From: a virus | Length of the DNA stretch: 43,208 nt | Strand: one strand, 5' to 3' | IMG/VR virus record: IMGVR_UViG_3300045988_065740 | Span: 1 to 43,208 of that record | Shown: positions 4,590-6,143 of the stretch, piece after piece | How positions within the stretch are numbered: the stretch's first letter is position 1 | Layout: every line of letters begins with the position of its first letter | Notes under the pieces: generated by a model | Seen by the model: only the letters and a program-made list of their open reading frames with translations | What the model was told of the DNA's origin: nothing | Databases searched by the model: none | Translations under genes and position numbers: made by a program

Positions 4590-5957
4590 ATGCACGGTGA
4601 CAATTACGGCACCATTGACAAATACCTGAATGGATGCTATGAAACCGGCTATATCGGCGTTATGTACGATATAGCCGGTCAGGGCGTTCCTCTTGTGGTG
4701 CCCATTGACCAGGCGGCGGCTATCAAGGCCGTGCTGACTGATTCCAAGGTCAGTAATGGCCTGTATGCTGCGCTGGGCGTTGATGTAGCAACACTGAAGA
4801 AGTCCATCACACAGGAGATCAGCCGGGGCATTGCGTCCTCTCTCCCCTACTCTGATATTGCCCGGAACATCAGCAACGTGTCCAAAGCGCCGCTGTCCAG
4901 AGCAAAAACCATCGCCCGGACAGAAGGCCACCGCATACAGCAGACATCATCCCGTGACGCACAATATGCAGCGAAGAAAAAGGGCGCTGACGTGCTGAAA
5001 CAGTGGGATGCTGCGCTTGACGGCAGAACACGGCCTTCCCACGCAAGAGTTGACGGCGAAATCCGGGAGCTTGACGAAAAGTTTTCCAATGGCCTTATGT
5101 TCCCCGGCGATCCATCCGGTGGAGCTGCCGAAGTTGTAAACTGCCGCTGCACGTCCAACACCAGGGCAAGGTGGGCGCTTGATGAAGAAGAACTTCAGAC
5201 GCTGAAAGAACGCGCTGAATACTTCGGGCTGGATAAGACGGAAAACTTTGAGGATTTCAAGCAGAAGTATTTGAAAGCGGCTGAAGCGCCAACGGCCCGG
5301 AAATTTACTCCGGCAAAAACCATTGAAGATGCAGCAAAATTCGCAAAGGATGTGCTTGGAATTGAGCAAACGACAGCATATCAGCTTGGAATGAACCTTG
5401 ATGTTGCAAATGGACTGAATGAAGCCGTTATGAGAATAAACGGCACATTCGGCAGTTTGACTGCATCCGGGTACTTGGAGAACGTTCTCCTTTACACAAA
5501 GAAATCTGGCTCATACGCTGCGTATTCTGCCCCTTTGAGTTCAGTCTTTCTAAATCCCATTGTAAAGCAAAAAAGCGCAATAAAGAAAATGACGGAAGAT
5601 GCTATGGGCCAATTTGAGCCGGGCGCATGGAGCACAGGAAACGCTTTCCACACTGTGTATCATGAGTTGGGCCACGCCGTTCAACATATGGCTCTTGACA
5701 ACGATGCCGTAAAAAGGAATAAAATTGATGTATTGTACAGAAAGGCTTTTTCTGATATATTGGGTGACGGAACGGCATGGACGATGGATCAAGACGCGGC
5801 ATTACCACTCGCAAAAAAAGCGAAAGATGCAGGTTTCAGCTATTACGGTTTGAGAAACTCCGGTGAATTTGTAGCAGAAAGCATTGCACAGTATTACCTA
5901 TCTGACAAGCCGGGCGAAATCGCAAAACAAGTTGTTGAAATTTTGAAAGGAAAATGA
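4590..5957 (+). CDS. Minor head protein (MuF / SPP1 gp7 family) with a C-terminal HExxH metallopeptidase-like domain; the true start is probably upstream (see finding)
   Basis: MuF-type core: TIARTEGHRIQQ...DGRTRPSHARVDGE...VNCRCT. C-terminal part contains HTVYHELGHAVQH and EFVAESIAQ. The same frame is open back to 4311 without ATG, GTG or TTG. Confidence 0.85.
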   Translation: MHGDNYGTIDKYLNGCYETGYIGVMYDIAGQGVPLVVPIDQAAAIKAVLTDSKVSNGLYAALGVDVATLKKSITQEISRGIASSLPYSDIARNISNVSKAPLSRAKTIARTEGHRIQQTSSRDAQYAAKKKGADVLKQWDAALDGRTRPSHARVDGEIRELDEKFSNGLMFPGDPSGGAAEVVNCRCTSNTRARWALDEEELQTLKERAEYFGLDKTENFEDFKQKYLKAAEAPTARKFTPAKTIEDAAKFAKDVLGIEQTTAYQLGMNLDVANGLNEAVMRINGTFGSLTASGYLENVLLYTKKSGSYAAYSAPLSSVFLNPIVKQKSAIKKMTEDAMGQFEPGAWSTGNAFHTVYHELGHAVQHMALDNDAVKRNKIDVLYRKAFSDILGDGTAWTMDQDAALPLAKKAKDAGFSYYGLRNSGEFVAESIAQYYLSDKPGEIAKQVVEILKGK

Positions 5958-5960
5958 TAT

Positions 5961-6143
5961 ATGCTTCTTACATTAGGAGATATGGATTTTTTGTCCAAGG
6001 CAACCGAAAAGGGCAATGACGGTCTGCTTGTAGCCAAAACTGGCCTTTCGGAAGAAGAAAAGGAAAGACTTTCGGACATTGACGAAATGAATTTCACGAC
6101 TTACGGTGAACATTTGATTAAAAATCACCGTGATTTGAAATAA
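5961..6143 (+). CDS. Small acidic hypothetical protein; candidate partner or immunity protein for the MuF C-terminal domain
   Basis: 60-aa ORF starting 4 nt after the MuF stop. It is followed by an intrinsic terminator. Confidence 0.5.
   Translation: MLLTLGDMDFLSKATEKGNDGLLVAKTGLSEEEKERLSDIDEMNFTTYGEHLIKNHRDLK

Follow-up and report, generated by a model that had tools for sequence, protein, structure and literature searches.

The viral record IMGVR_UViG_3300045988_065740 of IMG/VR, which we analysed over its whole length of 43,208 nt (hereafter the window; all coordinates are window positions), carries directly behind its portal gene a gene for a MuF-family minor head protein. This protein ends in a predicted zinc endopeptidase and is followed by a 60-residue acidic protein encoded in a small open reading frame (ORF). 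Nucleotide comparison with related loci indicates that the peptidase domain and the small gene are swapped together among unrelated MuF genes, as a cassette bounded by the MuF linker (at about 5277) and by a terminator (6140-6171). In the reading that we favour, with a probability of roughly 60%, the small protein would block the peptidase in the cell that produces the phage, the MuF core would load a few copies of the enzyme into the head, and the enzyme would enter the next cell with the DNA and cleave a cytoplasmic host protein. The elements of the locus are the following.

2859..4307, plus strand: SPP1-type portal gene, an ORF directly 5' of the MuF gene.
4311..5957, plus strand: gene for the MuF-family minor head protein with its C-terminal zinc peptidase; 548 codons are open, with the probable start at ATC 4314.
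4314..4316, plus strand: ATC at the site where relatives start MuF, identical in seven assemblies (L059-L065).
4803..5153, plus strand: MuF core domain (PF04233 match).
5154..5282, plus strand: conserved linker ending in …LKERAEYFGLDKTENFEDFKQKYLKAA, 80-100% identical in homologues with other C-termini; the upstream cassette junction lies at about 5277.
5283..5954, plus strand: ATLF/M34-like zinc endopeptidase domain of about 224 amino acids (aa), predicted from an AlphaFold2 (AF2) model, Foldseek and a profile match.
5661..5675, plus strand: HELGH within HTVYHELGHAVQH, the predicted two zinc-ligand His and catalytic Glu; invariant, and aligned to HETAH of the Pro-Pro endopeptidase PPEP-1.
5844..5879, plus strand: Y-x6-E-F-V-A-E within SYYGLRNSGEFVAESIAQ (5838-5891), comprising the invariant Tyr, the Glu proposed as third zinc ligand and a further conserved Glu.
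5945..5954, plus strand: Shine-Dalgarno-like GAAAGGAAAA inside the last MuF codons, 6 nt (its core AAGGA, 9 nt) before the ATG of the small ORF.
5961..6143, plus strand: gene for the 60-aa acidic partner protein, a putative inhibitor or immunity protein, supported by homologues, by the ratio of nonsynonymous to synonymous substitution rates (dN/dS) and by an AF2 model.
6142..6171, plus strand: intrinsic terminator and downstream cassette junction, a 13-bp hairpin with a U-run (dG -19.6 kcal/mol, z -5.8).

The MuF frame opens at 4311, close behind the last nucleotide of the portal ORF (4307), and continues as far as the stop codon at 5955-5957. Residues 165-281 match Phage_Mu_F of Pfam (PF04233; E=2e-19, 70.8 bits against a cut-off of 29.6), residues 3-357 are covered by PHROG head and packaging families, and an extension of about 250 aa reaches beyond the MuF core. 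The portal gene itself carries PF05133 (SPP1_portal) in L059-L065, assemblies that share the window sequence in the sampled region around the MuF start. A first-pass annotation of this DNA had read the gene as a MuF minor head protein with an HExxH-bearing extension, trailed after 4 nt by a small ORF and closed by a terminator. The Pfam match, the open frame and the motif positions bear this out, as does the hairpin with its U-run at 6142-6171; the 60-aa ORF lies at 5961-6143 on the plus strand as described, but the spacer before it is 3 nt long (tat).

The limits of the cassette emerged from phages that share the backbone of the window. One of them, L051, agrees with the window in its terminase, its portal, its MuF core and the tail-side structural genes further downstream and has a partly similar scaffold gene, and its MuF protein ends in DUF6883. 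In a blastn comparison with L051 (73-86% nucleotide identity in the matched stretches), homology extended from the portal gene to 5276, was absent from 5277 to 6139 and resumed at 6140-6178, where the 39 nt of the terminator stretch are 92% identical to this carrier of a different cassette. Homology to L054, which combines the same backbone with yet another C-terminus, stopped at 5278 and returned at 6139. With L001 and L014, whose MuF cores and head genes are unrelated, the window shares in this region only 5322-6187 and 5301-6121, respectively. Thus, the breakpoints on one side and the confined sharing on the other identify the peptidase domain and the small gene as one recombining cassette. 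Pairs of loci with MuF cores of merely 26-35% identity have peptidase domains that are 64-100% and partners that are 42-100% identical, and the same cassette was found on unrelated MuF cores and head modules (DUF4355/Gp13-like, SU10_MCP and Phage_capsid_4).

Behind this linker, close homologues of the window MuF core end in at least six further kinds of C-terminus, among them DUF6883, a coiled coil, a JAB-like domain and two beta-rich domains of unknown type. A small ORF of its own accompanies the alternative domain in such cassettes; behind DUF6883 it is DUF4926-like. The swapping of C-terminal domains for which the first-pass annotation had suggested surveying homologous MuF genes is therefore real, and the extension is no fixed part of the gp7 homologues of this lineage, given that L051-L055 are without it. 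By the same comparison, the peptidase domain is dispensable for the head module.

The cassette also occurs by itself. At 4001-4772 of L057 (JGI 3300042607), a 211-aa peptidase starting exactly at the domain boundary is followed by a partner ORF, inside which the contig ends; the pair is preceded by TTGACT…TAGAAT, which resembles a promoter, and has a ribosome-binding site of its own. Because bacterial radical-SAM, GH9 cellulase and solute-binding genes adjoin it, this copy looks like an orphan cassette outside any head module. A second seemingly stand-alone peptidase, in L056, was rejected: its upstream frame reads through into the MuF linker, so that it represents a frameshifted fusion. The MuF core and peptidase of this locus (3836-4729) are called as two genes, which reflects either an assembly error or a naturally split or decaying copy.

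These arrangements bear on the idea of a morphogenetic protease, according to which the zincin acts in the procapsid or the producing cell on the phage's own proteins, by removing scaffold or trimming MuF or portal, while the small protein serves as a timer or chaperone. The window does contain a scaffold gene (7367-8047) and no recognisable prohead protease; the MuF core matches PHROG 595, a family labelled 'head maturation protease'; folds similar to the peptidase domain in BFVD include a mycobacteriophage 'capsid maturation protease'; and zincins within virion polyproteins have been proposed to be processing peptidases (Iyer et al., PMC5512222). A prohead protease should, however, be conserved throughout its lineage, whereas the same-backbone phages L051-L055 have DUF6883 or other domains in place of the peptidase. 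Moreover, an identical cassette resides on unrelated MuF cores and head modules, the L057 copy stands outside any head module, and the window protein holds no second effector domain to be released. We therefore regard a morphogenetic role as unlikely.

Among the sister C-termini (in P0039, P0043/P0051/P0054 and P0059), the JAB-like one contains HNHPGSSVPSITD, and the two unknown beta-rich domains share a WYE/WFE motif (…ELHWYEANG… and …SIHWFEEP…). JAB-like and beta-rich C-termini are each trailed by an ORF of their own of 51-53 aa (L051 6317-6478; L054 6289-6444), and these combinations are candidates for further effector and partner pairs.

To what enzyme class the extension belongs is indicated by its modelled structure. 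An AF2 model of the C-terminal domain, built with 15 homologues, reached a mean predicted local distance difference test score (pLDDT) of 92.5 and a predicted template modelling score (pTM) of 0.83. It displays a three-stranded sheet, a helix (151-166, model numbering) with H155-E156-x-x-H159, and a later helix (221-234) at or in which lie Y216 and E223-F-V-A-E227, the glutamates E223 and E227 being part of the helix. When we searched the PDB with Foldseek, the top 23 matches were all PPEP-3, PPEP-1/Zmp1 or anthrax lethal factor (LF), with probabilities of 0.85-1.0. A profile of the family matched PPEP-1 on both motif helices (HETAHAIDH and KEFFAESFAYYYL; E=0.04), aligning EFVAES of the window to EFFAES of PPEP-1 (KEFFAES). 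The profile was required for this match, as a search of the PDB sequences with the single C-terminal domain returned nothing meaningful. The spacing of seven from the Tyr (codon 5844-5846) to the first Glu of EFVAES (codon 5865-5867; the second Glu codon is 5877-5879) equals that between Y178 and E185 of PPEP-1, whose numbering we took from the mutant names E143A/Y178F and an offset of 22 in the profile alignment. In anthrax LF, the equivalent residues are Y728 and E735. Structure search and profile thus uphold two earlier proposals, namely that the residues past the MuF domain form a metallopeptidase-like domain and that EFVAESIAQ supplies a candidate third ligand.

The residues predicted to form the active site, which include H451, E452, H455 and E519 of the 548-aa protein, are under strong constraint. 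When 66 long relatives were aligned, many of them only about 20% identical, the H, E, H and Y positions proved invariant and both Glu at least 90% conserved; HELGH is invariant in both family alignments (A2 and A6). Comparison with four or five relatives gave the peptidase domain a dN/dS of 0.08-0.13. Motif conservation and dN/dS therefore speak for an enzyme under selection and not for a chance motif or a relic. The only domain match of the extension in Pfam was ATLF (PF07737; E=0.014), and none of the 66 relatives (0/66) matched this family at E<=0.001. As the threshold test failed, we file the domain as ATLF/M34-like and not as a member of Pfam ATLF. The models confidently support, together with the alignments, a zincin with an intact predicted active site that is closest to anthrax lethal factor and the Pro-Pro endopeptidases.

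One might instead take the HExxH for a relic and the domain for an inactive structural extension that adds mass or a binding surface to the head protein, a view with which the sub-threshold Pfam score and the modest template modelling (TM) scores would agree. Yet a relic would hardly keep HExxH, Tyr and Glu unchanged or almost unchanged among 66 relatives whose identity falls to about 20%, nor a dN/dS of about 0.1, and the domain, dispensable in the lineage, is nevertheless conserved wherever it is present. We consider an inactive extension highly improbable.

To see how far the peptidase family has spread, we searched 1.84 billion cluster representatives (50%-cluster level) with phmmer, which returned 217 relatives of the domain at E<=1e-3 and 93 at E<=1e-10. 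The match nearly always reaches the final residues of proteins of 450-900 aa. Upstream of the domain, 39 of the 66 long relatives carry Phage_Mu_F and 15 carry Phage_min_cap2, a second MuF family. The best folds in BFVD belong to phage proteins named 'minor capsid protein', 'lethal factor', 'metalloprotease' and 'MuF-like minor capsid protein' (Mycobacterium phage Rope), in addition to the 'capsid maturation protease' already mentioned; from these names, annotation pipelines have evidently met this architecture before. Searching 50,697 GenBank phage records with tblastn produced a single weak match to the domain, and blastn of the region matched only unannotated faecal phage contigs and no annotated reference phage. 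Taken as a family, the peptidase domain is, by these alignments, a specialised cargo of MuF proteins. Three MuF proteins among the 66 long relatives add an ADP-ribosyltransferase (ADPrib_exo_Tox); an intein is present in two, and one forms a fusion with the portal.

The partner protein of 60 aa has a pI of 4.8 and a net charge of -5. Besides itself, the family includes 15 homologues at 65-98% identity, and distant relatives of 52-97 aa can be aligned over their full length. Its dN/dS ranges from 0.18 to 0.54, so that the partner gene, like the peptidase domain, is under purifying selection. The Shine-Dalgarno-like string before the gene is identical in L001 and L005. AF2 modelled the partner as a helix-hairpin-helix (pLDDT 88.5). 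Searches of Pfam with the family (21 members), of the PDB sequences with a profile and of the PDB folds with the model gave no credible match. Judged by its homologues, the small ORF is a genuine conserved gene, and its family is so far undescribed.

We then asked with what the small gene travels. It was present in 42 of the 42 related loci having the peptidase domain at E<=1e-44 (the window excluded), at -23 to +8 nt from the MuF stop. In contrast, it was found in 0 of 5 same-backbone loci whose MuF protein ends differently (L051-L055) and in 0 of 10 loci with merely distant relatives of the peptidase. The small ORF therefore varies together with the protease domain, as the first-pass annotation had expected of a toxin and its partner, and not with the phage backbone. 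The pairing persists down to about 31% domain identity and extends to metagenome-assembled genomes of Oscillospiraceae and to prophages of Fusobacterium animalis. A mirror-tree analysis correlated the partner with the peptidase at rho=0.47 and with the MuF core at rho=0.38; this difference is too small to decide, so the argument for a cassette is carried by the discordant pairs and the blastn breakpoints. What seemed to be a natural fusion of peptidase and partner, P0013, turned out to be a frameshifted call and was therefore unusable as a stand-in for prediction of the complex.

Strict linkage of this kind denotes functional coupling without giving its sign. The peptidase might thus be an effector whose small neighbour is no inhibitor but a folding or packaging chaperone, an adaptor, or an activator needed for loading or activity; that the partner displays neither an invariant zinc-binding motif nor similarity to known protease inhibitors fits such a role. 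In the sole tested MuF toxin, however, the linked small protein is an inhibitor that covers the active site (PMC12226406). The small ORF differs from one alternative C-terminal domain to the next, as in toxin and immunity pairs, and the stand-alone pair of L057 has no capsid into which anything could be loaded. A helper function of the partner is, in our estimate, not likely.

Another possibility concerns who is attacked. The phage derives from gut metagenomes, where it was assembled from many samples; its relatives have Oscillospiraceae and Fusobacterium as hosts and reside as prophages in genomes of Oscillospiraceae and of Fusobacterium animalis. A gene for a large serine recombinase (25729-27381, minus strand) and Cro/CI-type helix-turn-helix repressors mark the phage as temperate, in keeping with the temperate carriage of MuF toxins to which the first-pass annotation had pointed. 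Particles or lysate from lysogens could deliver the peptidase into competitors that have no immunity gene, the small ORF protecting the lysogens (model b of Jamet et al.). This use as an interbacterial weapon would suit a temperate phage and the organisation of the locus as a polymorphic toxin and immunity cassette, and a promoter-like site inside the peptidase gene (5734-5761) might let a lysogen express the small ORF separately. Such sites are no more frequent than chance would have it (2 found, 2.6 expected), and we rejected the internal promoter on these grounds. Nor did the sampled contexts yield any orphan immunity genes, and the few protease copies that a virion holds should have no more than mild toxicity (PMC5576092). 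We find this explanation distinctly unlikely.

The mechanism that we prefer accordingly places the action of the enzyme inside the next infected cell and may be outlined as follows. From what is known of studied relatives, the N-terminal MuF core would be the module that places the protein in the procapsid, at the portal, and allows its exit together with the DNA, while the C-terminal 224 residues would be an active gluzincin endopeptidase of the anthrax-lethal-factor and Pro-Pro-endopeptidase type. During late expression, the small cytoplasmic protein would bind and block the peptidase in the producing cell. The few MuF copies entering the head would leave their partner behind, and at the next infection the peptidase would pass into the cytoplasm with the DNA and cleave at least one protein of the host. 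That the target may be cytoplasmic is suggested by the partner, which, by eye, is devoid of the hydrophobic N-terminal stretch that a signal peptide needs.

Several points weigh against this mechanism. The structural likeness is distant, with Foldseek E-values of only about 1e-2, TM-scores of 0.33-0.52 and root-mean-square deviations of 6-15 A; the ATLF match scored 15.5 bits, below the gathering score of 27.4, and by sequence and model the domain cannot be placed securely in M34 proper. In the partner family no residue is invariant, the fold is not that of a known inhibitor and the PDB gave no match; the protein could be a chaperone or activator instead of an inhibitor. The census of pairs includes partly redundant loci (29 non-redundant pairs), and the hidden Markov model of the partner was built from some of the same loci. 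Jamet et al. expect peptidase-type MuF proteins to have low toxicity (PMC5576092), and a peptidase need not be toxic. Finally, the non-canonical ATC start may mean that expression of the MuF protein is very low.

More specifically, the peptidase might be a counter-defence or host-takeover protease preloaded in the capsid, which would cut a specific cytoplasmic host protein such as an immune sensor or effector within seconds of DNA entry, ahead of all phage gene expression. In that case, the 60-aa protein would be the founder of a new family of zincin inhibitors silencing the enzyme in the producer, and the swapping of cassettes would reflect an arms race with host targets. We offer this extended version tentatively and as a rather doubtful one.

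The start of the MuF gene is unusual. Between the portal stop codon and 4590, the MuF frame has no ATG, GTG or TTG, and gene callers shorten the protein to 455 aa. At the aligned site, relatives start with ATG (P0018), GTG (L058, L066 and L067) or TTG (L005) where the window has ATC, and a GGAGGG upstream of the start is common to the window and these relatives. Because the same ATC recurs in the seven assemblies, which come from different samples, it is no read error. Near-cognate initiation, reinitiation after the portal stop or low expression of a risky enzyme are possible explanations. We also considered, by eye only, and rejected a +1 frameshift at GGAAAAAGA, by which a short ORF with ATG codons at 4306 and 4321 would lead into the MuF frame. 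Initiation at ATC is the simpler reading, since the MuF-frame residues before the A-run (I-N-K-W-E-K) match those of relatives.

Around the cassette, other parts of the genome vary as well. Between the MuF unit and the scaffold gene lie a holin (Phage_holin_Dp1) and an endolysin (Amidase_3 and SPOR) at 6324-7221, bracketed by terminator-like hairpins at 6142-6171, 6260-6285 and 7220-7251. In relatives, the same slot holds an r1t-type holin with CHAP/PG_binding (L005-L008) or Amidase_2 (L051); from these gene contents, the lysis slot is a second swappable slot beside the peptidase cassette. The roughly 150 nt from the cassette terminator to the holin gene (6172-6320) contain no convincing ORF, and the hairpin at 6260-6285 is strong and followed by a T-run. 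In the interval between terminase and portal, homology to L051 stops at 1562 and resumes at 2850, with ORFs at 1180-2049 and 2046-2783; LRR_5 and CBM_5_12 proteins occupy this site in L005-L008, making it another variable insertion site. The product of a small ORF after the major capsid gene (9111-9419) ends in a repetitive acidic Pro/Glu/Thr tail (EPEPETEPEPETEPEPP) and then a basic KPKRGRKTKG.

Among the MuF toxins, only the (p)ppApp-synthetase type has been tested. The locus described here is a cleanly delimited cassette with exact boundaries, known (predicted) catalytic residues and at least 29 non-redundant natural variants. The alternative cassettes on the same backbone constitute natural controls, and one copy is available in a Fusobacterium animalis prophage for which the host assembly has been sequenced (GCA_002762005.1, NPND01000005.1). 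Should the partner prove to inhibit the peptidase, it would represent a new small protein inhibitor of LF/PPEP-like zincins; should the enzyme act on a defence protein of the host, the system would amount to a protease-based counter-defence delivered from the capsid.

The polymorphic MuF toxins of temperate phages were first noted by Zhang et al. 2012 (PMC3482391) and described by Jamet et al. 2017 (PMC5576092). The first-pass annotation had likened the locus to this toxin family with its small downstream genes, and every feature that defines the family at the sequence level is present: a PF04233-type N-terminal domain directly 3' of the portal gene, a toxin-type enzymatic C-terminus, polymorphism of that C-terminus, a domain-specific small ORF and a temperate carrier. 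Like the window, the toxins of Jamet et al. have MuF by the portal gene, a variable enzymatic C-terminus after a conserved core, a downstream small ORF of less than 150 aa and a temperate gut phage as carrier. In their survey, metallopeptidase domains occur in 20% of 191 MuF toxins, a share that may or may not include the present subfamily, and small ORFs follow 89% of the toxins (PMC5576092). In contrast to those toxins, the zincin subfamily of the window reaches no Pfam threshold and is nearly absent from GenBank phages, and its 52-97-aa partner family is undescribed. Zhang et al. list an anthrax-LF-like peptidase (ALF-MPTase) as a polymorphic toxin domain of Photorhabdus virulence cassettes (PVC) and the type II secretion system (T2SS), but not for MuF (PMC3482391). 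The literature that we searched contained no experimental study of a metallopeptidase-type MuF toxin. Thus, the theme of MuF toxin with immunity and metallopeptidase-type MuF toxins as a class are already known (PMC5576092); new here are the zincin subfamily without a Pfam threshold match, the partner family, the nucleotide-level boundaries of the cassette and its stand-alone copy.

Two head proteins with a MuF core, SPP1 gp7 and 80alpha gp44, act at or after DNA ejection (PMC5576092; PMC12323379). They resemble the window protein in their homologous N-terminal core and in their position after the portal gene, but have neither a C-terminal enzyme nor a linked small ORF. The only MuF toxin studied by experiment is MuF-Apk2, known with IapK and Aph1 from prophages of Streptococcus pneumoniae, Mannheimia and Pasteurella, where cognate pairs diverge together (PMC12226406, PMC10083569). 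Its C-terminal enzyme is toxic and is neutralised when the downstream IapK occludes the active site (PMC12226406). That system combines a (p)ppApp synthetase with two immunity genes, whereas the window combines a predicted protease with one putative partner.

With the M34/ATLF enzymes (anthrax LF, PPEP-1/Zmp1 and PPEP-3), the window peptidase shares the HExxH helix, the EF(F/V)AE(S/A) helix and the Tyr seven residues before the Glu, although identity is only 12-16% and about 25 extra residues separate the HExxH helix from the Tyr. M34 enzymes are secreted and cut eukaryotic mitogen-activated protein kinase kinases (MAPKKs) or bacterial surface proteins, while the window enzyme forms part of a capsid protein and has a cytoplasmic protein for a partner. 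Transport of an enzyme in the head and its delivery along with the genome, as proposed here, recall the capsid-packaged, co-injected effectors, such as the T4 Alt ADP-ribosyltransferase, P1 DarA/DarB and the polyvalent proteins (PMC5512222). Zincin peptidases are the commonest domain of polyvalent proteins and were proposed to be processors of the polyprotein, not attackers of the host (Iyer et al. 2017, PMC5512222). Polyvalent proteins, however, join two or more effector domains to a zincin hub, whereas in the window protein the MuF core serves as the carrier of just one effector domain, the zincin, to which a partner gene is dedicated.

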